The notes beneath the pieces are model-generated. The model worked only from the letters and a program-made list of their open reading frames with translations. It ran no database searches and was not told the origin of the DNA. Positions 11,128 to 29,824 of a DNA stretch of 64,000 nt are shown piece by piece. The translations under genes were made by a program, and so were the position numbers. Origin of the DNA: an uncultured Clostridia bacterium (GTDB taxonomy: Bacteria > Bacillota > Clostridia > Christensenellales > UBA1242). How positions within the stretch are numbered: the stretch's first letter is position 1; each line of letters begins with the position of its first letter. The DNA lies in contig CAMSQA010000003.1 of NCBI GenBank assembly GCA_947062475.1, forward strand, positions 31,990 to 95,989. The letters are read 5' to 3'.

Positions 11128-12477
11128 ATGAAGTCATGCGAGCAATATATCTATTGTAACAATCTCTTTGAAAGAGGTGATAAAATTGGAGTTGGGTGCA
11201 GTGGAGGAAGTGATTCTATTGCACTGCTTCATTTTTTGTCAAAAAATCAGGATAAATTTGGCATTGAAGTTTCAGTAATTCATGTGGATCACAGCATTCG
11301 AGAAAATAGTGGAAACGATTGTGAGTTTGTCAGAGATTTTGCTGAAAAACTTGGTCTGCGATTTCATAGTTTTAAAATTGATGTGCCAAAACTTGCAAAA
11401 GAGGATAAAAAAAGTCTCGAAACTGCTGCAAGAGAGGCAAGAGCAAAGGTTTTCAATGCTCTTGTTGAACGCGGAGTGGTAAATAAAATTGCTCTAGCTC
11501 ATCATAAAAATGATCAAGCAGAGACTATTCTTATGCATCTTTTCAGAGGTTCTGGTCTTGCTGGTGCAAGAGGAATGGAATCTGTCAGTGGATATTTTAT
11601 CAGACCTATGCTTGATACAGGTAAGGATGAAATTTTAAAGTATATTAAAAAAAATAAACTTAGATTTGTCGATGATTACACAAACGTAGACAATGTTTAC
11701 AATCGCAATTATGTGCGTAATGTGATTATGCCAAACATTCTTTCTCGCTGGCCAAATGCAATTGATTCTATCGTAAATTTTGGTAGATCGGCAAGTGAGG
11801 ATGATGAATTTATAAACAGTCAAATTTATCAAGATGCGGTGATATTTGAAAAGGCAGTTGCAAAAATACCTACGTCATATTTTGTCTATTCATCTTCAAT
11901 TGTGTCGAGAATAATTTTTAAAGCGATGAAGGGGCTGGGAGTGAACAAAGATATTGAAAGAAGGCATATCTCACTTATCAGTAAACTTGCACTAAATGGC
12001 GATAATGGAAACAAACTTAATTTGCCATTTGGATTTTGTGCTGTCAAAGAATATGATTATATCACCATTCATACAGGGCACGCCGCTCCAAAGAAGGATA
12101 AAGAATTTCAGCGAGCATTTAGGAGCGGCGAATTTAATTTGGCAGGTTTTGGCAGGGTGATTATCAAAAAAGTGAAGAAGGAAAATGTCTTTCAAAGTGA
12201 TGAAAACACTCTCTTCATTGATGGCGAGAAGTTGCCTAAAGGTGTAGTATGGCGTTTTAGACAAGAGGGTGATAAGTTTTGCAAGTTTGGCGGCGGAATG
12301 AAAAAATTAAAATGTTTTTTAATTGATAAAAAAGTGCCAGCAAGACTTAGAGATTTTATTCCTGTGCTTGCAAGTGAAGATGAGGTATTTGTCGTTGCTG
12401 GAATGGAAATTTCAGAAAAAATAAAGGTGACAGAAGATAGCAATAAAATTTATATGATAAAAGCTATACCTAGTTAA
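11128..12477 (+). CDS. tilS: tRNA(Ile)-lysidine synthase
   Basis: PP-loop GVGCSGGSDSIALLHFL, then IHVDHSIR and ALAHHKNDQAETILMHLFRGSGLAG. Length is typical for TilS. Confidence 0.92.
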   Translation: MKSCEQYIYCNNLFERGDKIGVGCSGGSDSIALLHFLSKNQDKFGIEVSVIHVDHSIRENSGNDCEFVRDFAEKLGLRFHSFKIDVPKLAKEDKKSLETAAREARAKVFNALVERGVVNKIALAHHKNDQAETILMHLFRGSGLAGARGMESVSGYFIRPMLDTGKDEILKYIKKNKLRFVDDYTNVDNVYNRNYVRNVIMPNILSRWPNAIDSIVNFGRSASEDDEFINSQIYQDAVIFEKAVAKIPTSYFVYSSSIVSRIIFKAMKGLGVNKDIERRHISLISKLALNGDNGNKLNLPFGFCAVKEYDYITIHTGHAAPKKDKEFQRAFRSGEFNLAGFGRVIIKKVKKENVFQSDENTLFIDGEKLPKGVVWRFRQEGDKFCKFGGGMKKLKCFLIDKKVPARLRDFIPVLASEDEVFVVAGMEISEKIKVTEDSNKIYMIKAIPS

Positions 12478-12582: not shown

Positions 12583-12601
12583 GTCTTATATATTGTATAA
12601 T
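12573..12601 (+). promoter_or_regulatory. Sigma-A promoter driving the large ncRNA
   Basis: TTGCAT (12573-12578), 17-nt spacer ending in TG, TATAAT (12596-12601). The predicted TSS at about 12608-12610 coincides with the 5' strand of the closing helix. Confidence 0.7.
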
Positions 12602-12609
12602 CTATTTAT

Positions 12610-13206
12610 AGAAGGTGCAGTATTCTAGTCAGAAAGTTGACTTAGGAAGGTGAAGTAATAGCACCGAAGGGCATATCTGTGAAGTTTCTGGTGCTGGCTT
12701 TGGTTGCCCAAACTGGGGCTGGTGCTGGAAGTTAAGAAATTTGGGCGAGCTGTAATGGCATACAGAAGCCGACCCATTTTTCGTGGAGACCTAGTTTAGG
12801 TGGATGTCAAATCATCTACTTTCTAGGAAGAACCTGCATTGCGATAAAAGTTGTGTGCAGTGTAGCCTGCTTTGAGTGAGTGGTAAGGGATATGGCGTAA
12901 ATGATATAGTTTGTAAAGCGCTTATCAAAGGATATCATTGTCATTGAAATTTCACTTGCAAAACAAGCTAATAAGTCTTCTGCCTGTCAAGGAAAACTTC
13001 TAGACTGTTGCTTATGCAGATACATTGAGGATTATAGTGCGACCTAAGTGGCGATTCGGTGTTATGTCTTGCTTAAAAGGAAACTGCTTAATCGGTGACG
13101 ATGAGTGCGAGAATGGGAAATCCGACCGAACCTATGGCGCAAGGTTTACTCAGTAGATTGCCTTCTAAAAAGGGGAAAGGATAATAAGTCGCTTCCTCTT
13201 TTTTTA
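12610..13206 (+). ncRNA. Large (~560-nt core, ~600 nt with terminator) highly structured ncRNA; OLE/ROOL size class, family unresolved
   Basis: It has its own promoter and terminator (stem 13171-13199 + T7), no credible ORF, and visibly higher G+C than the flanks. Closing helix 12610-12617:13159-13166. Nested hairpin CCTAG/CTAGG (12790-94:12823-27) with GTGGATG/CATCTAC (12800-06:12813-19). Perfect 8-bp AATGATAT/ATATCATT (12900-07:12932-39). CTGTA/TACAG (12750-54:12761-65). GNRA hairpin ATCG-GTGA-CGAT (13091-13102). Long-range TTCGGT/ACCGAA (13055-60:13125-30). Confidence 0.75.
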
Positions 13207-13346: not shown

Positions 13347-13373
13347 TTGACAATTCCCCCCCCCATGTATAAT
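13347..13373 (+). promoter_or_regulatory. Promoter with a C9 homopolymer in the spacer (phase-variation candidate)
   Basis: TTGACA (13347-13352), 15-nt spacer ATT-C9-ATG, TATAAT (13368-13373). Homologous to the promoter at 27156-27182. Confidence 0.6.
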
Positions 13374-13401: not shown

Positions 13402-14409
13402 ATGGGAAGAATAAGAGATTGGTTTGAAGAAGAAAATGGATTTTGTAAAATGGTATTTGGCGGAATTGCATCGGTCGTATTTGCAGGTGTTTTTACTTTT
13501 GTTTCTTGTGTTACCAATGGTATTGTTTCAACTAAATATTTAAGCAAAACAAAAAAAGATTTAGAAGAAAAAAGGGTTGTTTTGCAAGAAAATATTGCAA
13601 GTTATGTGAAAGATATCAATGATTTTGAGCTTGCATCTGTAGAACTTCTTCACAACAATGAAAATTATATTTGCAAAGCTTTTGGTAGGACTGGAATAAA
13701 ATCAGTGCTGGGACTTGAAGAAGATAAATATGTCAACATTTTTTTCAATATTTCACAAGATAAAGCTCAAACAATTTTGGATAAAATCGAAGCCTTTGAT
13801 AAGACAGGGCGAATGAAGAAAAATGATAGCCCAGAAAATTCTTTAGTAATTAAAGGCGGAATAAAATGTATAGATTTATCAGTAAAAGGTAAATTGAAAA
13901 AGTCAGTTGATGCTTGCATGCAGGTGTTTGATGCTATAGACAATGCTGTCAAGAATGCTTATGAATATAAAATTGAAGAAATTGCAAATTCAAAACAGTT
14001 TAATGAAAAATTGGCAAAAGATTATAGATATGTAAAAAATGAAATTTCAACAAGAGTCGATGGTCTCTTCGTCCATTCAAAATTTGTAAATAGTGGAATT
14101 ATGACAACAGGAATTTCAAGCGTAGCGAGAAATGAAGAAACAAATGAGAGCTATTTTTATGTTGACACACTTCAAGCAATCGCAAATGGAAAGCCTGGTG
14201 AAAAATTTGATAAATTCAAACTTGAGACCTGCAGAACAATGGTTGTTGTAGATGGTGCAAACCTTACAGATGAAGAGGTTTATGCAAAGTTTATCAGAGG
14301 TGAGCATAAGGAATTTCTTGAGCTTGTCAGAAATACAAATAGTGAAAAAGTAGGTATTTTTAATGGCAAAGTTGAAGAAGATGTTGAAGAAATCGAATTT
14401 TTGTTTTAA
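13402..14409 (+). CDS. Hypothetical membrane-anchored or possible lipoprotein
   Basis: GGAGGTG RBS. N-terminal hydrophobic segment MVFGGIASVVFAGVFTFVSC with a lipobox-like FVSC. The rest is soluble, with no family recognised. Confidence 0.6.
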   Translation: MGRIRDWFEEENGFCKMVFGGIASVVFAGVFTFVSCVTNGIVSTKYLSKTKKDLEEKRVVLQENIASYVKDINDFELASVELLHNNENYICKAFGRTGIKSVLGLEEDKYVNIFFNISQDKAQTILDKIEAFDKTGRMKKNDSPENSLVIKGGIKCIDLSVKGKLKKSVDACMQVFDAIDNAVKNAYEYKIEEIANSKQFNEKLAKDYRYVKNEISTRVDGLFVHSKFVNSGIMTTGISSVARNEETNESYFYVDTLQAIANGKPGEKFDKFKLETCRTMVVVDGANLTDEEVYAKFIRGEHKEFLELVRNTNSEKVGIFNGKVEEDVEEIEFLF

Positions 14410-19597: not shown

Positions 19598-19711
19598 ATT
19601 TAAATTCTTTAGAAATGTTCTCTAGTTATTAAAAAATAGAAATTAAATGTATTGCTATTTGAATTATTATATGATATTATTAAAATATAGATTTTTAATT
19701 TTTTTATAAAC

Positions 19712-22045
19712 TTGGATGGAGGAGAAGTGCAAACTCAAGAAGATAGACTCGAATATTTTGCGCAAAGAATTATCAATAAGGCAACAGCAGATGAAATTAA
19801 CGAGGATTTAATGGTATTGACGCTTACAAAGGCGCAGCTGATTGACCCAATGCTATTGTCATGTCTCAAAAACAAGGTATTTGACAAGGAATTTGCTGGC
19901 AAAAAAATCAAATTCAAATGTGCAGATGGCGATCTCTTCTTTAAAGCTGGCGAGTTTGAGACTTTGGTTGAAAACTATAAGGCAATAGAAGAGTATAAAG
20001 CCTCTCTTGTCTTTGAAGAGACAATAAATCTTGGCACTGGCTCTTTTCACAATAATGAAGAGCAATTGATTGCCATGTTTAAAAAGCAGGATAAAGTTGA
20101 AAGGTCCTTTGAAGATATTGTGCAGATAAACAAAAAGCTTGCTGATATAGCAGAAAAAATCAATGGCGGCTATGTCGACGAAGATGGAAATAAAAAAGAA
20201 CTTTCGCCACTTGAAAAATATTTTGTATGTTATCAAATTGCAAGAAGCATTTCTTATTTGGTTGAAAATGAAGAAGATAGAAAAAAGGCTGGATATAGCT
20301 TTACGCGAAGCGTAGTTGACTTGATAAAAAATCAAATTGGATGTTGTGTGGGAATTTCAGAATATTTTCGTGCGATACTTGAAATGGTGGGAATAAACAA
20401 TTGTTGTTTAAGTGTTGACTCAGATAGAGAGGGTCTGCTTTATAAGCAAAATTTAAATGAGAATATCGCAGAGTTATTCAGTTTTAAAAAGCTTTTTAAT
20501 AATTATACAAATAGGGAAAGCAATATATTAGAAGAACTTGATAAATTAAATAACTTTCAATATGTTACTTCACACAAATCAAATTTGGTCTATTTAAAAG
20601 ATGAGAAATATGGCATTGATGGTGTTTTTTTGGGAGATGCAACTTTTGGTGACAAATACGATATTGTTGCAATAGGTGATAATTTTGACATACTCTTTAA
20701 TTTTGCGACTTTCTTTCAGTCAGGAGATGATATATCAAATTTATTAGATAAAGCAAGCAAGCTTGATCTGCTTGAAAAGAATGAGAACAGTTTGGATAAA
20801 GATTATTATTTTAATTATGCAAAAAGTTTATTGGTTCAAAGTTTTAAAGCTGCGTTTTATAGCAATACTTTATTATCGCCTCGTTTGTCACTTGATCAAG
20901 CAAGGTTTGTATTAAAGCTTGAAGGCTGCAAAAGTTATGATGAGGTTTTTGATCTGATTGAAGAGAAATGTTCTGAAAAAGACATGACAACAGGACAACC
21001 AAACGAATACGCCGCTGCTTATTTACAAAGCTTTGAAAAGGTGCTGTATGATCAAGACCAAAAATTCTTAAAATCAACAGAAATCAAAAAAATATATGAA
21101 AAACTTGAAAATACAAAATTTATAAAGAAAGTTTCTCAAGAGATAAGCACCGCGTCAAAGGTAAGCCATAAAATCTTTGACCAAATTTTTGAGGGAAGTG
21201 AATATGCTTTTATGAATGGTATAAAAAATATGACGGAGACAAATGATTTTCTCAAAAATGCCTCACCAGATTTAAAAGGAAGTAAAAATATAGTTTTGGA
21301 AATTGTTCAAAAAAATGGGCTTGAACTTGAATTTGCTTCAAAAAATTTGCTAGATGATTATGATGTGGTGTTGGCAGCGGTGAGCCAAAATGCTGAGGCG
21401 CTCAAATTCGCCTCAGAAAGATTGAAAAACAAATATGAACTAGTTTTGAAAGCTGTTCAAGGAAATGGTGAAGCGCTTAAGTTTGCATCAGAAGAAATGA
21501 GGAATAATATTGAAATTGCTTTGACTGCTATAAGAAGTGATTGTTCAGCCCTTCTATATGTGCCAATAGATGGCCGTAATTACAATGAAATCGTGCTTGA
21601 AGCTGTCGATATGGACGGGCTTGCTTTAGAGTTTGCATCAAAAGAAATGCAAGATGATTTATTGGTGGTTATGACAGCTATTCAAAATGACAGGGAGGCG
21701 TTGAAGTTTGCCTCGCCAAGATTTCAAAATAACAGAGTGCTTCAAGAAGGGAAATTTGAAGTTTTGGAAGACATGATTTCTTGTTATGACAGTGTCAAAA
21801 ATATCCAAGATTTTCCACTAAGTTATTTTCAAGAGGAAAATAGATATATCCTTGATTTTGCAATGGAAATCATTGCGGAAAGACTTGAAGATTCAGTCAT
21901 TAAAGAGGAATATTATGAAATGATTGAAGAAATAATTAATTCAAAACTTGACGATCTTGCAAGTTTGGAAGAGATGAAAAAACTAAAAGACGAAATGCAT
22001 TTCTTAGATTTTGAACAGGATTTTGAGCTGGATGACGATGAATAG
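19712..22045 (+). CDS. Large protein: possible transglutaminase-like Cys-His-Asp core + DUF4116 repeats
   Basis: Central repeats NGLELEFASKNLLDDYDVVLAAVSQNAEALKFASERLKNKYELVLKAVQGNGEALKFASEEMRNN... fit the DUF4116 pattern. Upstream, GCCVGISEYFRAILEMVGI ... SHKSNLVYL ... GDATFG is weakly transglutaminase-like. TTG start uncertain. Confidence 0.6.
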   Translation: MDGGEVQTQEDRLEYFAQRIINKATADEINEDLMVLTLTKAQLIDPMLLSCLKNKVFDKEFAGKKIKFKCADGDLFFKAGEFETLVENYKAIEEYKASLVFEETINLGTGSFHNNEEQLIAMFKKQDKVERSFEDIVQINKKLADIAEKINGGYVDEDGNKKELSPLEKYFVCYQIARSISYLVENEEDRKKAGYSFTRSVVDLIKNQIGCCVGISEYFRAILEMVGINNCCLSVDSDREGLLYKQNLNENIAELFSFKKLFNNYTNRESNILEELDKLNNFQYVTSHKSNLVYLKDEKYGIDGVFLGDATFGDKYDIVAIGDNFDILFNFATFFQSGDDISNLLDKASKLDLLEKNENSLDKDYYFNYAKSLLVQSFKAAFYSNTLLSPRLSLDQARFVLKLEGCKSYDEVFDLIEEKCSEKDMTTGQPNEYAAAYLQSFEKVLYDQDQKFLKSTEIKKIYEKLENTKFIKKVSQEISTASKVSHKIFDQIFEGSEYAFMNGIKNMTETNDFLKNASPDLKGSKNIVLEIVQKNGLELEFASKNLLDDYDVVLAAVSQNAEALKFASERLKNKYELVLKAVQGNGEALKFASEEMRNNIEIALTAIRSDCSALLYVPIDGRNYNEIVLEAVDMDGLALEFASKEMQDDLLVVMTAIQNDREALKFASPRFQNNRVLQEGKFEVLEDMISCYDSVKNIQDFPLSYFQEENRYILDFAMEIIAERLEDSVIKEEYYEMIEEIINSKLDDLASLEEMKKLKDEMHFLDFEQDFELDDDE

Positions 22046-22117
22046 CATAAAATAATTTTCACTATTGACAACAATCATAGTAAAGTGATATAATATTTAT
22101 AGATAAAGGAGGGGAAT

Positions 22118-22651
22118 ATGATTTGTATTTTCAAAGCACAAGCACTTAAGGCTGTAAGAAAAAATGGGATGAACCTTTCAAAACTTTCAAAAAAATGGCA
22201 AAATGATTTGGATGTCGTATTGGCGGCAGTAAGTCAAAATGGAAAAGCCATTCGTTATGGACATCCAAGATTTACTCGTGATAAAATGGTGATGATGGCA
22301 GCTGTCACAAATGATGGAATGGCAATCTATTATGGCACACCTTCAATTAGGGGCAATAAAGATGTAGCTATGGTTGCTCTCAAGCAAGCACCTGAAGCAT
22401 TTGATTTTATTTTACCTGAATTAAAAAAAGATGATGAAATTCTTATCGCAGCAGGCATGGCAGTTTCTGAAAAGAAAGAAGAAAACAACACAGAAGAGAA
22501 TGCTGACAAATCAGTAAAAATGGAAAAAATTTTTAATAAATTTAATTCAATGGAAACAAACATAGAAACACTATCAAACCAAGCTGGCTTGCAAAAAAAT
22601 TATTCAAACAATGATGTGCTTGAATTTGATGATGATGAAATGCAAAGTTGA
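22118..22651 (+). CDS. DUF4116 repeat protein
   Basis: Repeats: NGMNLSKLSKKWQNDLDVVLAAVSQNGKAIRYGHPRFTRDKMVMMAAVTNDGMAIYYGTPSIRGNKDVAMVAL. GGAGGGG RBS. Confidence 0.65.
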   Translation: MICIFKAQALKAVRKNGMNLSKLSKKWQNDLDVVLAAVSQNGKAIRYGHPRFTRDKMVMMAAVTNDGMAIYYGTPSIRGNKDVAMVALKQAPEAFDFILPELKKDDEILIAAGMAVSEKKEENNTEENADKSVKMEKIFNKFNSMETNIETLSNQAGLQKNYSNNDVLEFDDDEMQS

Positions 22652-22667
22652 AATCTTTATTTAGGAG

Positions 22668-22701
22668 AAAAAAAGACATATCAATTGATATGTCTTTTTT
22701 G
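22668..22701. terminator. Bidirectional rho-independent terminator
   Basis: Perfect palindrome AAGACATATCAATTGATATGTCTT, flanked by an A-run and a T-run, between convergent genes. Confidence 0.8.
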
Positions 22702-22844
22702 TTGAAAATCATCGAAAATTAATTGAAATAAACGAAAAATAATTAAAACAATCGTTTTTTGCTTAATCAAATCGAAGTTTGCTTAAATAACAGTAGAAAT
22801 ATTTATAGAAAGAGATTTATATTTAATTGTGTCAATTTTTCTTT

Positions 22845-23291
22845 TTATATATTTTCAATCTTATTTTTTGATAGATTTTCAGTAGAATTATTCATTAGTG
22901 TTGCTAAACCTTCATTATGTAATTGATATATCCGTTTGATTGAATAATTCAACGTTTCGGCAATTTCTTCAAATGACATCAATGAGATATATTTCAGATA
23001 AAAGATAGTTTGATAGGGTTGTGGTAATTTGTTTATGTATTCTTCTATTTTCTGTTTCTTATTGAGAATTGTCAATAATTTATTCTCTTCAACAATTTGT
23101 CTTTCTATAAATGAATTGAAATTGTTTTCAATTTCTGTCGAACTTATCTGGCTCATTTTATAAACCTTGTTGCTTTCTGCAAGTTTGGATATGTCGTTTT
23201 TTAATTTGTTTACATCCTTTAATTTTTCATTAAACAATTGCACATCATATTTGTATGATTCGAGCAATCTTTTGATTTTTTCTTTTGTCAT
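22845..23291 (-). CDS. Sigma-70 region-4-like HTH protein (ArpU/DUF1492-like regulator)
   Basis: C-terminal LPQPYQTIFYLKYISLMSFEEIAETLNYSIKRIYQLHNEGLATL resembles sigma region 4. No region 2 is evident. Confidence 0.55.
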   Translation of the reverse strand: MTKEKIKRLLESYKYDVQLFNEKLKDVNKLKNDISKLAESNKVYKMSQISSTEIENNFNSFIERQIVEENKLLTILNKKQKIEEYINKLPQPYQTIFYLKYISLMSFEEIAETLNYSIKRIYQLHNEGLATLMNNSTENLSKNKIENI

Positions 23292-23362
23292 TTTTTTACC
23301 TCTTTAAATTAATTTTTCTTTAGTTTAGGGAAATCCCTTTTTGGTGAAATCTCTTTGAAGAT

Positions 23363-24193
23363 CTAGAAAATATTTATTGCATATGATGCGTCAATGCAAG
23401 AAAGATCGTTGATCCTTAAAAAGCCCATAGAGTCATCACCAAATGATGAAAGCAGATAATTATCAGTCCTTATTAGCTTGTTATCTTTATAAAACTTATA
23501 TTGGCGATAGCCAAATACTGCTGCAACATGGGCATTTGTGCTTTTCTTGCCAATCAAACTACATTCAGTGTCGGCAATATAAGAGCCGCCGTCATAATAA
23601 TATTCATAATTATCCAGAAACACAATTACAGGAATTTGTCTTTCGAAATAGCTGTTTGCTGTTGCAACATTAAATTTGCTTCCGCATGAATTATAAGTGA
23701 TATTATAGCCTTTGCCTTTGACATATGCGGTAAAGCCTTTTTTAAATTGGTCAATACTTGTGCCTGGTGCTATTGTGTTTGTGCCCATAAGGTCATAAAG
23801 CTCTGCTTCAAGGTCTATTGTTGTGTAAGTATTTCCGTAAAAATAATATTTTCCTTCATACTCTCGGCCTGGCTCAAAATCTGGGATTAGGTCGGGCAGA
23901 GTTACATCATAATAGCCTATTACGGTAAGAGCAGCGACGCATGCACAAGAATTTGTTTTTGTCACATTTGAATAAACAGGCAAAAACATGTCAAGGCTTG
24001 TCCCAGTGCTTGTATAATAGTCATATTTAAATTGAAGCGTGGTATCAACCGTGTTGCCGCCCGTGTTGCTGTATGACGTATCACAATAAAAACCCTCTGT
24101 CATCGTATGCAATTTCGCCAGTGGCAAGAAACTGATTGATATTAGACAGAGAGCAATTATTAATAGTGGTAAGTTTTTTAATTTTATTTGCAT
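23363..24193 (-). CDS. Secreted putative cysteine peptidase (C39-like/papain-like fold)
   Basis: Signal-like N-terminus MQIKLKNLPLLIIALCLISISFLPLA. Candidate catalytic Cys (NSCACVAALTVIGYY) and His (TNAHVAAVFGY). The start was set to the ATG after the AAGGAGG RBS. Confidence 0.5.
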   Translation of the reverse strand: MQIKLKNLPLLIIALCLISISFLPLAKLHTMTEGFYCDTSYSNTGGNTVDTTLQFKYDYYTSTGTSLDMFLPVYSNVTKTNSCACVAALTVIGYYDVTLPDLIPDFEPGREYEGKYYFYGNTYTTIDLEAELYDLMGTNTIAPGTSIDQFKKGFTAYVKGKGYNITYNSCGSKFNVATANSYFERQIPVIVFLDNYEYYYDGGSYIADTECSLIGKKSTNAHVAAVFGYRQYKFYKDNKLIRTDNYLLSSFGDDSMGFLRINDLSCIDASYAINIF

Positions 24194-24246
24194 TTTATCC
24201 TCCTTCATATACTAAATGTCATCAAAAGGATAAAAAGGGTCAAATT

Positions 24247-24900
24247 TTAACAAAATTTTTCAAAAAATTCTTGATCATTTATTTCAAAATTGAGATAAAG
24301 TTTATAATTTTTATATTCGAAGAGAGAAAGAAAACGATTGCTTATTAAAGAGATCTCTTTATTGATATATAATTTATAATCTTCAGTTTGAGTTATTTCA
24401 GCATTTAAAATATAATTTTTATGCTGGCTGTATATAAAATTCTTTTCCATAACGAGTATTGCATTACACTTAGTATATGGAATATCATATTTTTCTAATC
24501 TAAATGTCATTGCAAGAAGTTTATTTTCCTTATCAGGGGAAAAATATCCATACATTGATTGCAATTTGCAATCATCAAAGATAAAATTATATTTTGGATA
24601 TTTTGTTGAAATAATATCTTGCACGTATTCCCTTTCAAGCAGGGTTTGTGAAAGTTGGTTGTCTCCATAAGATTTTTTATTTTGTCTTAGCGTCAGGGGA
24701 AGGACAATGCAAGGGGTGATGATCAATATAAGTAGACAGGCTAATATTGATGTCAATTTGAGATGATATCTACAAGGTTTGGCATTTTTATTTTCATTTA
24801 TTTTATTCTTCAGTCTATCTTTCTCTGCATTGTCTAGTTGCGGAATACTTTTATTATCGAAATATGAATTTATCTCATTTTCAAGCTCTTTCTTTTTCAT
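24247..24900 (-). CDS. Putative anti-sigma factor (single-pass membrane protein)
   Basis: Overlaps the sigma gene by 20 nt. One TM (LTSILACLLILIITPCIVLPL) separates a short N-terminal domain from an extracytoplasmic domain. Confidence 0.55.
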   Translation of the reverse strand: MKKKELENEINSYFDNKSIPQLDNAEKDRLKNKINENKNAKPCRYHLKLTSILACLLILIITPCIVLPLTLRQNKKSYGDNQLSQTLLEREYVQDIISTKYPKYNFIFDDCKLQSMYGYFSPDKENKLLAMTFRLEKYDIPYTKCNAILVMEKNFIYSQHKNYILNAEITQTEDYKLYINKEISLISNRFLSLFEYKNYKLYLNFEINDQEFFEKFC

Positions 24901-25411
24901 TTAAGTTCTCCTTTATATAATCGTAGATTAAATTCAATCTTCTTTTGACAGTCGATTCTGAAATCTCTGTCAATTTAGCAATTTCTTTAAGTTTCAATCC
25001 TTCATGAAATTTAAGATATACCAGTTGTCTATCAATGTCGCTGAGATTATCGAGAAGTATTTTGACCGAAAAAGTGTTTAAGTCAATATTATAAATTTCA
25101 CTTGAAAACTTTTCATCCAAAGAAATGGTTCTGTTTTCTTTTCTGATTAAATTTCTCAAATGATTGCGTGCAATTGCTAAAATCCAGTTGTAACAATTTG
25201 TGTAAAACAATTTCGTTTTTGACTTTTCAAAGATAGTTTCAAAAGTTGCGATAATAGCATCCTTTATCACTTCTTCGTTTGACCAATATTTTCTTAGAAA
25301 ACAAAATAAAACGTTATACATTAGAGAATAAATATCATCAAAGGCTTCTCTTTCGCCAAGCGACACTTTCTTGATAAGTTTATTTAATCTTGTTTTATCT
25401 TCTGATGTCAT
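24881..25411 (-). CDS. ECF-type sigma-70 family RNA polymerase sigma factor
   Basis: Region 2-like FDDIYSLMYNVLFCFLRKY...DAIIATFETIF and region 4 LKEIAKLTEISESTVKRRL. Confidence 0.8.
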   Translation of the reverse strand: MTSEDKTRLNKLIKKVSLGEREAFDDIYSLMYNVLFCFLRKYWSNEEVIKDAIIATFETIFEKSKTKLFYTNCYNWILAIARNHLRNLIRKENRTISLDEKFSSEIYNIDLNTFSVKILLDNLSDIDRQLVYLKFHEGLKLKEIAKLTEISESTVKRRLNLIYDYIKENLNEKERA

Positions 25412-25954
25412 AAATCCTCTCTCATTTTTTTTATTTTATAGCAGTCATTCAGTTAAGACTGTTTTTAGTTTGAAAACTTTGATTATGTGTTTATTGCAAG
25501 CCTTAGACGCTGCACAAAAACTACATATATATTTTATAACTCAAGAAAATTAAGTCAAATATATTAAAGGGAATTTTTTTAATATTGGATAAATTTATTG
25601 ATTAATAGCAGTCTTTGTCAATGATTTGCAGATTTTAGAAAGCATAAGTAGTTGTTCAAATAGACTTATCAAGAAGGAAGAAAATTTTTAAAAATGTTGT
25701 CGAATAATAATATGACCTGTTGCTTTTTCTCTAGCTATATTTTCTTCGAGATAAAGAAAGTATCCGTATTTGCTGTGGGACAAAACATTTTGAAGCTCTT
25801 GGTGTAGATGTAGCCTTTGGAGTTGCAAAAAGGTTTAAAGATTTTAAAGCAAAACAATAAATTTTTGACAATCAACATTGATAAAGTTGTTATATCTGTG
25901 ATATTATGATTATGGTTTAATTAAACTTAAATTATAAAAAAGAAAATATAAATT

Positions 25955-26536
25955 ATGGGAATGTTTGACTATTCGATTGTTACACATAATGGAAAGGTAT
26001 TTTTTAATAATTGGATTGAATGGCAAGAGATTAACTTGCCAACCGAGCCTAAATGGTTTAGAATAATAATACAAGGTATTTTATCATTCTTTGGTCATTG
26101 TGGGGAATGCATTGCTATTGGTGGTTGCTATTTTGTTGATAGAAATATGCCTGAGCAACCTTTACACCCTAAATGTCATTGTGGGAAATTGTCAATTGCT
26201 ATTGATAAAGTTTCAGCAAATATAAATGCAAATTGTCCACTAGAAAAATTTATAAATTATATATTTACTGATGATACAAAATCAAAAGGCAAGAAATCTT
26301 TATTTGAGTCTTTGGGATATACACGAGAAAATTCAATGCAATTAAAGTTTGATTATGAAAATCAAGCTAGAGAACAATATTTAAAAGGACTATATGAACT
26401 TGATACATTAGACGAATATGGACAAAGGATAAATATTGAAATAGATTTGAATGGACATAAAATATTATCTGGTTGGATGCTTGAACCGAAAGGTAAAATT
26501 AGAAATATCACACCATTTGGAGGATGGGCAATATGA
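25955..26536 (+). CDS. MuF-C-terminal-motif protein with a DUF6883-like C-terminal domain (toxin-like)
   Basis: GHCGECIAIGGCYFVDRNMPEQPLHPKCHC matches the C.EC..L.G....P..HPNCRC motif of SPP1 gp7/Mu F head-morphogenesis proteins. The C-terminal EKFINYIFTDD..KGKKSLFESLGY... resembles DUF6883. Confidence 0.45.
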   Translation: MGMFDYSIVTHNGKVFFNNWIEWQEINLPTEPKWFRIIIQGILSFFGHCGECIAIGGCYFVDRNMPEQPLHPKCHCGKLSIAIDKVSANINANCPLEKFINYIFTDDTKSKGKKSLFESLGYTRENSMQLKFDYENQAREQYLKGLYELDTLDEYGQRINIEIDLNGHKILSGWMLEPKGKIRNITPFGGWAI

Positions 26537-26805
26537 AAAAATTTGATTTAGTAAAATTAATAGATGCAACTAAATATCTCGAAAGAGGTTTATATAAAGA
26601 TTTGCATGGTGTAGTATTAAATATTGGTATTAATGAAAGTGAAATTTTGTTTGTTAATGAAACAAACATAGGCGAAGCGATTATTGTAAAGGTATCAAAT
26701 AAAGACTTGATTATAGAAAAGGAGAAATTACCAGAATATATAATTGATGAGATACAAGAAAAGTTAGATATTAATAAATTAATGAAAAAAACAAACTTGA
26801 AATAA
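26533..26805 (+). CDS. Small DUF4926-like protein (immunity candidate)
   Basis: The ATG overlaps the upstream stop (ATGA at 26533-26536). GGAGG lies 9 nt upstream. MKKFDLVKLIDATKYLERGLYKDLHGVVLN... Confidence 0.5.
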   Translation: MKKFDLVKLIDATKYLERGLYKDLHGVVLNIGINESEILFVNETNIGEAIIVKVSNKDLIIEKEKLPEYIIDEIQEKLDINKLMKKTNLK

Positions 26806-27014
26806 TAAACTTAAAAGCTTATGATTTTGTAGAATTATTAGTTGAAGATGAAAATTATGCAAAGTTTGGATTACACAAAGGAGATACAGGTTGTGTATTA
26901 GAAGGCGAAATAATAAAAGGAAAGTGTCTGGTTGATTTTACAGGAATAGATAATGCAGGAAATATATATGGTAGTTGTATAAAAGTCAAAGTAGAAGATT
27001 TAAAAAAAATGTAA
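26778..27014 (+). pseudogene. Second DUF4926-like reading frame without a canonical start codon
   Basis: The frame is open from 26778 to TAA 27012-27014 and encodes ..AYDFVELLVEDENYAKFGLHKGDTGCVLEGEIIKGKCLVDFTGIDNAGNIYGSCIKVKVEDLKKM. The 5' end offers only ATT/CTT/ATA/TTA codons. Confidence 0.4.
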
Positions 27015-27021
27015 AATTCAT

Positions 27022-27053
27022 AAAGCCGAGATTTCGTGATGAAGTCCCGGCTT
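27022..27053 (+). terminator. Rho-independent terminator
   Basis: AAGCCGAGA...TCCCGGCTT GC-rich stem. Confidence 0.55.
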
Positions 27054-27155
27054 AACCATCTGCATTAACCTATGCAAACGATACAAGCAACGAAAGGCAA
27101 TATATAAAACCGGAGAATTATTAAAAAAAGTTTTATGTATTTTATAGAAAAATGT

Positions 27156-27182
27156 TTGACAAAATTCGGGGGGGGGTAGAAT
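27156..27182 (+). promoter_or_regulatory. Promoter with a G9 homopolymer in the spacer (phase-variation candidate)
   Basis: TTGACA (27156-27161), 15-nt spacer AAATTC-G9, TAGAAT (27177-27182). The flanks are homologous to the 13347-13373 promoter. Confidence 0.6.
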
Positions 27183-27233
27183 AGAGTAAGGAATGAATTG
27201 TTTTAATCATTACAATTATTAAAAGGGGAAGTT

Positions 27234-27662
27234 ATGACTAAGAAAAATACATTATCAAATAAAATCACTATTTCTATTCTTGTTCTTTTATTGTCAATCG
27301 TCACTTTATTGATGGCATCGTGCGGAGGCACTAAAGATCCAAAACCTTTCAAAGACATCATAAATGATTCGATAAATCAAAGGGTTGTTGTTTTAAATGC
27401 CAGTGTCTCGGCTGAGGAAGCCCCTCAGGCAGGTGGATTTTGGACTTCTGTTGATTATAATAATGAAGATGACTATAAGGCTTATAATATGTATTATGAC
27501 AAAACAGGAAAACTTATCTCTTATATCACATATGAAAATTCTAGATTACAAGGTAATGATTCATGGGTGGGAATTGACACAGCTTTATCAATAGAAGAAT
27601 TCCACAAAAATTCAAAGATTTTTTGGAATTTCATTCTTGAAACATATTCAAGAAACCGTTGA
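27234..27662 (+). CDS. Lipoprotein (possibly disrupted at its 3' end)
   Basis: Signal peptide with lipobox LLMASC. AAGGGGAAG RBS. Protein-like sequence continues in another frame up to 27816 (see the next feature). Confidence 0.6.
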   Translation: MTKKNTLSNKITISILVLLLSIVTLLMASCGGTKDPKPFKDIINDSINQRVVVLNASVSAEEAPQAGGFWTSVDYNNEDDYKAYNMYYDKTGKLISYITYENSRLQGNDSWVGIDTALSIEEFHKNSKIFWNFILETYSRNR

Positions 27663-27816
27663 AGCTGGAAAAGTTTGAAAACAAGAAAATGGCAAATATT
27701 TTGTTTTCGGAGATGCACATTATGAAGTTGAGGCGAAAAACGATTTGATTTCACAAATCACATTCGATATTGAAGATGATTTAGTGATGCATTATATAAT
27801 GAATTTTTCTTATTAA
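27595..27816 (+). pseudogene. Out-of-frame, TGA-interrupted continuation of the lipoprotein gene
   Basis: The +1 frame reads ..QETVEAGKV*KQENGKYFVFGDAHYEVEAKNDLISQITFDIEDDLVMHYIMNFSY* (in-frame TGA at 27679-27681). This suggests a frameshift plus nonsense, or homopolymer assembly errors (A5/T6 runs at 27606-27625). Confidence 0.35.
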
Positions 27817-27837: not shown

Positions 27838-27868
27838 GAAACAACTCTAAAAAATGAGTTGTTTTTTA
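27838..27868 (+). terminator. Rho-independent terminator
   Basis: AACAACTC...GAGTTGTT stem followed by TTTTT. Confidence 0.75.
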
Positions 27869-27937
27869 TTTTTATATAGTCAACTGATTTTGCTCCGTGA
27901 AAAATTTAAGTTTAATTTTAAAATTTGTTTTATATTC

Positions 27938-27966
27938 TTGAAATTGTCGCAAAATTATGATATAAT
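27938..27966 (+). promoter_or_regulatory. typA promoter
   Basis: TTGAAA (27938-43), 17 nt, TATAAT (27961-66). Confidence 0.65.
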
Positions 27967-27991
27967 CGTAAGGTTAAAAAGGATGAAAATT

Positions 27992-29824
27992 ATGAAAAAC
28001 GAAAAAATTAGAAATATTGCTATTATTGCCCATGTTGATCACGGCAAAACTTCGCTTGTAAATGAGCTTTTAAAACAAGGAAGCGTATTTAGAGACAATC
28101 AAGTTGTTGAAGATAGGGTTATGGACTCAAACGCACTTGAAAGAGAAAGAGGAATCACTATTCTTTCAAAAAACTGCTCTTGTCTTTATGGTGACACAAA
28201 AATCAACATCATTGACACACCAGGACATGCCGATTTTGGTGGAGAAGTTGAACGCGTTTTGAAGATGGTTGATGGTGTTTTGCTTGTTGTAGACGCTTAT
28301 GAAGGTCCTATGCCTCAAACTCGTTTCGTGCTTGAAAAGGCACTTGCTCTCAAACTTAAAGTAATTGTAGTTGTCAACAAAATCGACAGAGCTGATGCAA
28401 GAATCAGTGAAGTCATTGATGAAGTGCTTGAACTTTTCCTCGAACTTGATGCTGATGAAGAACAGCTTAATTCTCCTTTCATTTTTGCGTCTGCAAGAGC
28501 TGGAATTGCCAGTGAAAACCAAAATGAAAAGGGCAGTGATATGAGTGCCCTCTTTAATAAAATCATCGAATATGTCCCAGCTCCTGAAGGTGAAGAACAA
28601 GAGGCATGTCAAATGCTTGTTTCTTCTGCTGAGCATAATGAATATGTGGGAAAGCTTGCTGTTGGGAAAATTTCTAGAGGTTCAATCAAGGTTGGTCAAA
28701 GTGTCACTCTTTGCAATTATCATGACGAAAGCAAAAAAACAAGATCAAAAGTTGTCAGTCTTTTTGTTTTTGAAGGTCTCAAAAAAGTGCCTGTTGAAAG
28801 CGCCAGTGTTGGCGAAATCGTCTGCATTGCTGGTCTTGAAGGTGTGCAGATTGGCGATACAATCTGTGACAGCAATGTGGTTGAACCAATTGAATTTGTC
28901 AAGATTGCTGAGCCAAGTGTAGAAATGACGTTTATGGTAAATGATAGTCCGCTTGCAGGACGAGAAGGCAAGTTTGTGACATCTCGTCACCTTCGTGACA
29001 GACTTTATAAAGAGGCAATCAAAGATCTCTCACTTCGCGTGCAAGATGGAGAGACCGCCGAGCAATTTAAGGTGAGTGGAAGAGGTGAAATGCATCTTTC
29101 AATCCTGATAGAAAACATGAGAAGAGATGGCTATGAATTTCAAGTTTCAATGCCAAAAGTTCTCATCAAGGAGATTGATGGTGTCAAGTGCGAACCAATC
29201 GATAGACTTATACTTGATGTCCCAGAAGATTGCACAGGTGTTGTTATGCAAAAAATGGGCGTTCGTAAGGGAGAACTTGTGCAGATGAATCCACATGGAA
29301 ATCGTATTAAAATGGAATTTTTGATTCCTTCAAGAGGTTTGTTTGGATTTAAGAGTGAACTTTTGACTGATACAAAGGGTGAAGGCGTCATCAATTCAGT
29401 ATTCTATGATTATCAGCCATGGAAGGGTGAAATCAAACGTCGTGATGTTGGCTCTTTGGTTGCTCATGAAGATGGTGAAGCAATTGTTTATGGTCTTTTC
29501 AATGCTCAAGAGAGAGGAGAACTTTTTGTTGAAGCGGGAATGAAGGTCTATGCTGGCATGGTTGTCGGCTCAAACCCAAAAGGCGGAGACATCGTTGTTA
29601 ATGTTTGCAAGAAAAAGCATCTTTCAAACTGTCGTGCCTCTGGTTCTGACGATGCACTTAGGCTTACACCAGCAAAAAAGATGAGTCTTGAGGATGACAT
29701 TGAGTTTTTGGCAGATGATGAAATCCTTGAAGTCACACCAAAGAGTTTAAGAATACGCAAGATTATTCTAGACCATAATCTTAGAAATCGTGAACGCGGA
29801 AAGGCTTTAAGAGGTGAAATTTAA
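27992..29824 (+). CDS. typA: Translational GTPase TypA/BipA
   Basis: [18 protein letters not shown] (G1), [14 protein letters not shown] (G3), NKID (G4). About 610 aa with EF-G-like domains. The start was trimmed to the ATG downstream of the promoter. Confidence 0.93.

Follow-up and report, generated by a model that had tools for sequence, protein, structure and literature searches.

The window analyzed here is a 64,000-nt stretch of contig CAMSQA010000003.1 from an uncultured Clostridia bacterium (GCA_947062475.1), and our subject is a predicted promoter within it that carries nine consecutive guanines (G9) between its -35 and -10 hexamers, immediately upstream of a gene for a small predicted lipoprotein. 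Established by observation are the anatomy of this site, its departure from chance, the recurrence of its design in relatives, and the length polymorphism of analogous cassettes. We propose, with a probability of about 0.6, that the G9 site is a contingency locus, that is, a sigma-A promoter whose strength would be set by the length of its homopolymeric tract through replication slippage; by analogy with known systems, this is our best hypothesis for the site.

Positions 27156–27182 of the + strand read TTGACA AAATTC GGGGGGGGG TAGAAT, with a spacer of 15 nt, and the two hexamers together match the consensus at 11 of 12 positions (Table 1). A G sits 2 nt past the -10 hexamer, as it does in many related cassettes; a G at this distance favors contact with sigma region 1.2. 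The promoter lies 51 nt from the lipoprotein ATG (27234). The tract is intergenic (27016–27233), and no open reading frame (ORF) of at least 50 residues overlaps it on either strand. When the + strand of this interval was scanned for consensus promoters, no other promoter-like site with 16- to 18-nt spacing was found, and the predicted G9 promoter is the lipoprotein gene's only promoter candidate. Upstream, a stable hairpin follows the stop codon at 27013–27015 and probably marks the 3′ end of the preceding transcription unit; because no U-run follows it, it is not a canonical intrinsic terminator. The coding stretch that ends at this stop appears to be an ORF of fewer than 50 residues. Since hairpins flank the lipoprotein gene on both sides and bipA has a predicted promoter of its own (27938–27966), the gene is predicted to be monocistronic. 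The longest bipA ORF (start 27854, 656 residues) overlaps that promoter. BipA of relatives has 610 to 611 residues, and the true bipA start is therefore probably near 27989–27992.

Table 1. Features of the G9 promoter, of the C9 cassette, and of their surroundings (window positions; functions are predicted from sequence).
Feature	Position	Strand	Remarks
C9 sister cassette, TTGACA ATT CCCCCCCCC ATG TATAAT	13347–13373	+	15-nt spacer; AGAG follows; TTGACA 13347–13352, C9 13356–13364, TATAAT 13368–13373
335-residue gene, predicted to be driven by the C9 cassette	13402–14409	+	ORF begins 28 nt 3′ of the promoter
DUF4116 repeat-protein genes (island)	19712–22045 and 22118–22651		
Sigma-70-family genes, extracytoplasmic function (ECF)-like (island)	22845–23291 and 24881–25411	-	both on this strand
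Possible anti-sigma gene (island)	24247–24900		
DUF6883-like gene (island)	25955–26536		
Stable hairpin	27023–27053	+	-17.9 kcal/mol, z = -4.3; 0 of 200 shuffles as stable
A/T-rich stretch 5′ of -35	27100–27155	+	direct reading; possibly UP-element-like
-35 hexamer TTGACA	27156–27161	+	6 of 6 consensus matches
Spacer, 15 nt	27162–27176	+	direct reading; AAATTC (27162–27167), then G9
G9 homopolymer	27168–27176	+	abuts -10; proposed slippage-prone length element
-10 hexamer TAGAAT	27177–27182	+	5 of 6 consensus matches; lacks TG at -15/-14
Discriminator AGAGTAA	27183–27189	+	predicted transcription start near A27188/A27189
Shine–Dalgarno-like AGGGGA	27224–27229	+	direct reading; 4 nt 5′ of ATG
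142-residue predicted lipoprotein gene	27234–27662	+	signal peptide; lipobox LMAS|C30
Terminator-like hairpin with T-run	27838–27875	+	precedes the bipA promoter

A second promoter of this layout, the C9 cassette, occurs in the same window. Both are read on the + strand, where one carries G9 and the other C9, and they have in common the consensus elements, an ATT that leads into the run, and an AGAG that follows the -10 hexamer. An earlier sequence-only reading had described TTGACA-AAATTC-G9-TAGAAT, with its 15-nt spacer, in front of a lipoprotein gene, and had counted the layout twice; direct reading, along with the Shine–Dalgarno sequence, signal peptide, and lipobox, confirmed the first statement, and the composite pattern TTGACA-N0-3-ATTC-N6-16-TANAAT, which matches exactly these two window sites, confirmed the second. 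Its argument for a shared design rather than chance was borne out more widely than it had claimed, with instances in the closest relative (stretch L027, described below), in further metagenome-assembled genomes (MAGs) of low-GC Clostridia, and in Pumilibacter muris. The ATTC prefix that it gave to both cassettes holds as far as ATT; the C in the C9 cassette is the first C of the run. That the two cassettes are homologous, as it had put it, was not demonstrated: beyond a core of ~40 nt they do not align, and the scores of their flanks are those of background (z 1.5 and 0.6). A surface-exposed product, which the same reading had assigned to each promoter, is predicted for the lipoprotein and doubtful for the 335-residue protein behind C9. 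The latter has a single N-terminal transmembrane helix with a lysine-rich C-terminal flank, for which the positive-inside rule favors a cytoplasmic location of most of the protein; it matched nothing in Pfam, NCBIfam, or PHROG. A full-length OLE RNA (RF01071, 387.9 bits, model positions 1–616) is located at 12596–13180 (+), between tilS (11128–12477) and the C9 promoter, with the 335-residue gene directly downstream of it.

Neither run is expected from base composition. The window (64 kb, 31.8% GC) holds exactly two G or C runs of at least 6, both of them 9-mers and both inside promoter spacers, whereas 0.0129 G runs and 0.0007 C runs of at least 9 would be expected; any run of that length was seen in 6 of 300 first-order Markov simulations. 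The composite pattern averaged 0.08 matches in 100 shuffles, none of which contained two. These counts exclude chance for the two run-bearing promoters. In 229 kb of bipA flanks from relatives (12 loci, three related species), no G or C run of at least 6 was present, and this near-absence of other runs from window and relatives indicates that tolerance of such runs is not the default.

We also considered whether the tract is a poly-G artefact, such as two-color Illumina chemistry can yield, or whether the site is a switch of another kind, namely an invertible, ECF-sigma-dependent, or activator-dependent promoter. These possibilities are already disfavored, and we regard them together as barely credible. 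The species is also represented by an independent metagenome contig (ERZ13692132, L001; matched stretches are cited here by L number), which carries the same promoter in the same place, and the site is therefore not an assembly artefact; the run is, moreover, short, internal to its contig, and flanked by promoter hexamers. The two ECF-like sigma genes nearby could suggest an ECF promoter, but the hexamers are of the housekeeping type rather than the ECF type (AAC/CGT). An invertible promoter (inverton) was rejected, as no inverted repeats were detected within 26700–27700. A MerR-type or otherwise activator-remodeled promoter was rejected because the spacer is 15 bp rather than 19 to 20 bp and no dyad operator was seen, and a known RNA element because no Rfam family overlaps the site. 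Nor is this an extended -10 (TGn) promoter, since GGG precedes TAGAAT in the G9 cassette and ATG abuts TATAAT in the C9 cassette. Alternative registers that would restore 17-bp spacing fared no better: GTTTGA as the -35 element matches the consensus at 2 of 6 positions, and GAATAG or TAATAG as the -10 element lacks the conserved final T.

To gauge recurrence, species-representative genomes were scanned with TTGACA-N0-3-ATTC-S7-N0-8-TANAAT (S, G or C), which returned at least 119 stretches. Among the 119 matches listed, 22 contain an unmixed run, all G or all C, of 7 to 12, a proportion expected to be ~1.6% if G and C were placed independently. Because the pattern forces TTGACA, ATTC, and TANAAT, identities in those elements are not evidence; the features left free are the purity of the run, the recurrent AGAG after the -10 hexamer, and a constant C-type layout of 3 nt, C9, and 3 to 4 nt. 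Two forms stand out. One, TTGACAATT-C9-nnG-TATAAT-AGAG, is found in L027 and L098, with close variants in L061 (AGGG after the -10 hexamer), L025 (C8), and L105 (4-nt linker, TACAAT). L027 reads TTGACAATT-C9-GAG-TATAATAGAG and comes from MGBC127298 (“uncultured Eubacteriales,” GCA_949077035.1), the MAG that is the nearest relative by BipA, at 96% identity. The other form, TTGACA(A)AATTC-G9-TATAAT, is found in L045, L031, L091, and P. muris (L068). Genes begin 20 to 50 nt downstream and, among the cassettes listed, mostly encode surface or secreted types: lipoproteins in L061 (Big_3), L098, and L068 (BspA-type leucine-rich repeats [LRR] plus Listeria–Bacteroides repeats), a Big_2 secreted protein in L063, a DUF4116 repeat protein in L027, a 1317-residue repeat protein in L021, a small membrane protein in L091, and an AAA_5/DUF6273 protein in L045.

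Runs that the pattern had not selected gave the same picture. All three evaluable extra runs of at least 9 in low-GC bacterial loci stand between TTGAC(A/T) and TA(T/A)AAT, with spacers of 16 bp (L091), 19 bp (L098), and 16 bp (L186). The second promoter in L098 (at 1644) is TTGACA-AAATTTTT-C9-GT-TATAAT, with 19 bp, and that in L091 (at 792) is TTGACT-TTTTTTC-G9-TATAAT, with 16 bp; these lie 1.6 to 2.9 kb from the first promoter of their stretch, a hint of local clusters. Outside the ~40-nt core, comparisons of cassette flanks gave background scores, the exception being a low-complexity A/T match between the C9 cassette of the window and L027. A mobile promoter cassette with extended homology was rejected because these flanks are unrelated. 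The resemblance among cassettes is that of a common design, or of a short common consensus, without demonstrable homology.

Analogous cassettes differ in tract length between samples of the same locus. A metagenome scan with the G-type pattern gave 78 matches; clustering by flanks showed 10 loci to have been sampled more than once. Four of the 10 vary in the length of the tract, with flanks at least 85% identical; flanks were compared base by base for P. muris only. In P. muris, the cassette TTGACAAAATTC-G9-T-TATAAT precedes a gene for a 948-residue lipoprotein with BspA-LRR and Listeria–Bacteroides repeats, and G9 in the isolate genome (L068, 4683–4710) contrasts with G8 in a metagenome (L193, 3297–3323), the 300 nt upstream and the rest of the promoter being identical. 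As P. muris is cultured, the switch model could be tested there. A human-gut organism (GC ~0.58) carries TTGACAATTC-Gn-TATAAT as G12 (L158), G11 (L168), and G13 (L175), corresponding to spacers of 16, 15, and 17 bp, with flanks that match over the ~45 nt shown. The Microcystis element aaaaacggagaatacTTGACAAATTC-Gn-TAGAAT (L109, L123–L189; e.g., the VYL* series) exists in two flank variants and spans G7 to G11, with G8 to G11 in 18 copies of one and G7 to G9 in the other. Loci fixed at G7 or G8 are invariant, including a Planctomycetota locus seen nine times at G8, and this invariant set also serves as a control against sequencing noise. Variation only in the longer runs is the length-dependence expected of slippage.

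Together, these data suggest the following mechanism. The site would be a housekeeping-sigma (sigma-A/sigma-70-type) promoter with near-consensus elements, in which only the spacing of the hexamers is nonoptimal. A G/C run of this length gains and loses units by slipped-strand mispairing during replication, and each unit would shift the spacer by 1 bp and so change how well the -35 and -10 elements fit RNA polymerase. Slippage in G9 could thereby take the spacer to anything between 14 and 17 bp or more. At 15 bp, two under the 17-bp optimum, the assembled G9 state is predicted, by analogy, to be one of low expression; with G10 the spacer would reach 16 bp and with G11 17 bp, and transcription of the small lineage-specific lipoprotein gene would rise at each step. 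A population would then hold a minority of cells with different levels of the surface protein, and the C9 promoter at 13347 would follow the same design. Slippage at the G9 locus itself, the link from length to expression, and any adaptive value are what we infer from the observations above.

Several observations weigh against this proposal. The sequence-only reading had put forward tract-length heterogeneity as the check on the G9 locus, and the check gave no positive result: the locus is represented by two samples, both with 9-nt tracts. The only sample of the species other than the window, L001, reads GGAGGGGGG, of the same length with a single G>A interruption at 27170, and a metagenome scan for the exact G9 locus with any tract of 4 to 16 nt returned 0 matches. 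L001 differs from the window at 5 of ~1018 positions (~99.5% identical) and has ~3x coverage, at which the G>A change could be an error. L001 ends, at 1019–1060, in Illumina adapter (AGATCGGAAGAGCGTCGTGTAGGGAAAGAGTGT); that assembly was not adapter-trimmed, and its single-base differences are therefore to be treated with caution. Homopolymer lengths in short-read metagenome assemblies in general carry some error. Spacer lengths are a further difficulty. Among 62 independent non-phage cassettes, 37 have a 15- to 16-bp spacer and seven have 17 bp, with a minor group at 19 bp, and C9 occurs in seven of eight independent C-type loci. A freely drifting tract would be expected to spread more widely, and 15 to 16 bp with a run of about 9 may therefore be a functioning state under selection and not “off.” Under the switch model, this mode could reflect an “off by default” state, a contraction bias of long runs, or the tempering of an over-strong consensus promoter. 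Finally, a 208-kb phage contig keeps the run at 8 or 9 in at least 13 such promoters while their spacers vary from 15 to 18 bp.

These same observations bring forward a different explanation, in which a special core-promoter architecture works at 15 to 16 bp and the run belongs to it as a fixed, functional element. The layout would be a -35 hexamer, a short A/T segment, and a run of 8 to 11 that abuts the -10 hexamer or stops 3 nt from it, and the effect of the run would come from the structure or stiffness of the DNA, from sigma contacts just 5′ of the -10 element, or from a run-binding factor; changes in run length would be deleterious noise, not a switch. The phage promoters, the 15- to 16-bp rather than 17-bp mode, the constancy of C9 with its 3-nt, C9, 3- to 4-nt layout, and the identical tract length in the second sample of the species all fit such an element. 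So does a layout that depends on strand, for which a device based purely on length would have no use: the G runs directly adjoin the -10 hexamer, and the C runs are set off from it by a 3-nt linker whose last base is usually G. Against it, G and C versions both occur on the coding strand, contrary to a sequence-specific reading of the run, and orthologous cassettes vary in length once runs reach at least 9. Run length also tends to compensate for the remaining spacer (Spearman -0.31, p = 0.013, to which the search pattern contributes part), which points to total length as the constrained quantity. A literature search found no description of a promoter element of this kind, and in viruses the design is rare (11 contigs among 2.9 million). 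We consider a fixed element unlikely, though it deserves to be taken seriously.

The phage contig, Ga0172382_10000034 (IMGVR_UViG_3300015214_000001), is that of a jumbo phage, and its promoters are gene-proximal. They consist of TTGACA, 7 to 10 A/T-rich nt, G8 or G9, and TA(G/A)AAT (L143, L146, L153, L196, L207–L210), and two of them form a divergent pair; in a few G8-TAGAAT units, a -35 element is not discernible. The phage genes behind these promoters had no PHROG match. That a single core-promoter element of this type extends across phyla (TTGACA, a short A/T segment, and either G8–11 abutting the -10 hexamer or C9 separated from it by a 3-nt linker, in many cases with AG(A/G) next) seems improbable to us. 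If true, RNA polymerase or a run-binding factor would be reading spacers in a manner not yet described, and the element would serve as a main promoter type in a jumbo phage and at accessory surface genes in gut Clostridia. The 15- to 16-bp mode, the layout specific to each strand, and the more than 12 such promoters of one phage raise the question of a spacer function beyond length.

The gene behind the G9 promoter bears on yet another possibility, namely that the tract is a nonadaptive leftover. A strong promoter, into which a slippage-prone run had entered or which had come with its surroundings by horizontal transfer, would have contracted to a crippled 15-bp spacer in front of an effectively silent and decaying gene, and no switching would be under selection. 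The product is predicted to be a surface-type lipoprotein, with a lysine-rich N terminus followed by a hydrophobic core and the lipobox. In a set of 5.8 billion proteins it has only two matches, one being the protein itself and the other a fragment of it, and that fragment was the sole match in an exhaustive HMMER search of 1.84 billion representative proteins. No Pfam, PHROG, or NCBIfam family was assigned to it, no orthologue lies in the relatives' bipA flanks (the 12 loci and 229 kb above), and a single-sequence AlphaFold model was unusable (predicted local distance difference test score, 51). The lipoprotein is thus an ORFan.

Its gene lies in a lineage-specific island of ~8.5 kb (about 19700–27700) between the S6-SSB-S18 operon and bipA. 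By BipA, MGBC127298 is followed by a broad clade of “Clostridia bacterium” MAGs at 85 to 92% identity. Gene order is conserved 3′ of bipA (DnaB, GltX, and others) and not 5′ of it. In the P0006 and P0020 groups (two related species), the S6-SSB-S18-L31 operon nearly adjoins bipA, with one or two small genes between them, and in MGBC127298 five DUF4116 genes separate the ribosomal operon from bipA. Besides the genes in Table 1, the island of the window holds several unknown genes. A phage or defense origin of this neighborhood was rejected, as PHROG, NCBIfam, and Pfam gave only sigma-factor-like genes and DUF4116.

Both the ORFan status of the gene and its place in the island fit a leftover, and the interrupted tract of L001 would stabilize the short state. 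Other observations speak against it: ORF, Shine–Dalgarno sequence, lipobox, both hexamers, and terminator are all intact, and the 80 protein residues covered by the second sample show 100% identity. The window, moreover, has the layout twice and its relatives have it repeatedly, in every case with an intact gene, and other G/C runs are nearly absent from both. We therefore judge a leftover to be distinctly improbable.

The G9 site, as predicted, has the structural hallmarks of promoter-spacer contingency loci: a repeat, its position within a predicted promoter, and a predicted surface-type product. Until now, phase variation in gut Clostridia has mostly been ascribed to DNA inversion, and a literature search found no description of the present design in these bacteria. 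If our proposal is correct, repeat-driven stochastic control of surface proteins, a classic theme in pathogens, extends to uncultured low-GC gut Clostridia, and a consensus -35/-10 pair bracketing a G/C run of at least 8 would be a signature of variably expressed surface or accessory genes in MAGs. It would also bear on strain-level heterogeneity, on escape from immunoglobulin A and phage, and on how metagenomic “indel noise” is read.

Among known systems, one close parallel is porA of Neisseria meningitidis, in which a poly-G tract lies in the spacer from -35 to -10; expression is high with 11 G, 2.2-fold less with 10 G, and 13-fold less with 9 G (PMC3639595). As in porA, a G homopolymer occupies the sigma-70-type spacer of a surface-protein gene. 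Unlike porA, which belongs to a Gram-negative pathogen and whose variation was demonstrated experimentally, the G9 promoter comes from a low-GC Clostridia genome, has hexamers closer to consensus, and is known from its sequence alone. The 9G form of porA is reportedly in the same 15-bp state as the G9 locus. In opc of N. meningitidis, the length of a promoter poly-C tract dictates expression, and a change from 11 C to 12 C raises Opc (PMC3447861). This C homopolymer parallels that of the C9 cassette, which differs from opc (tract of 11 to 13) in having a perfect -35 hexamer and a 3-nt linker before the -10 element. The opc promoter lacks a good -35 element.

In Mycoplasma hyorhinis, the vlp lipoprotein genes are each switched by the length of a poly-A tract between -35 and -10. 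The G9 locus resembles them in driving a lipoprotein gene, in its low-GC Firmicutes-type lineage, and in having the homopolymer in the spacer. It departs from them in that vlp has poly-A tracts and a multigene lipoprotein family, whereas here the tracts are G/C, the lipoprotein is a lone ORFan, and the partner genes are unrelated. Haemophilus influenzae hifA and hifB are said to vary through TA repeats in overlapping promoters. There, as in Bordetella pertussis fim (poly-C) and Helicobacter pylori sabA (a T-tract rheostat), a repeat alters promoter geometry with on/off or graded output, as proposed for G9; the repeats themselves differ from ours in type or position, being, respectively, a repeated dinucleotide, a tract that stands between the -10 element and an activator site, and a tract 5′ of the -35 element. 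The cassettes of P. muris (L068 and L193) and MGBC127298 (L027) are further parallels: although their downstream genes are not homologous to those of the window and their flanks outside the core are unrelated, the core itself is nearly identical.

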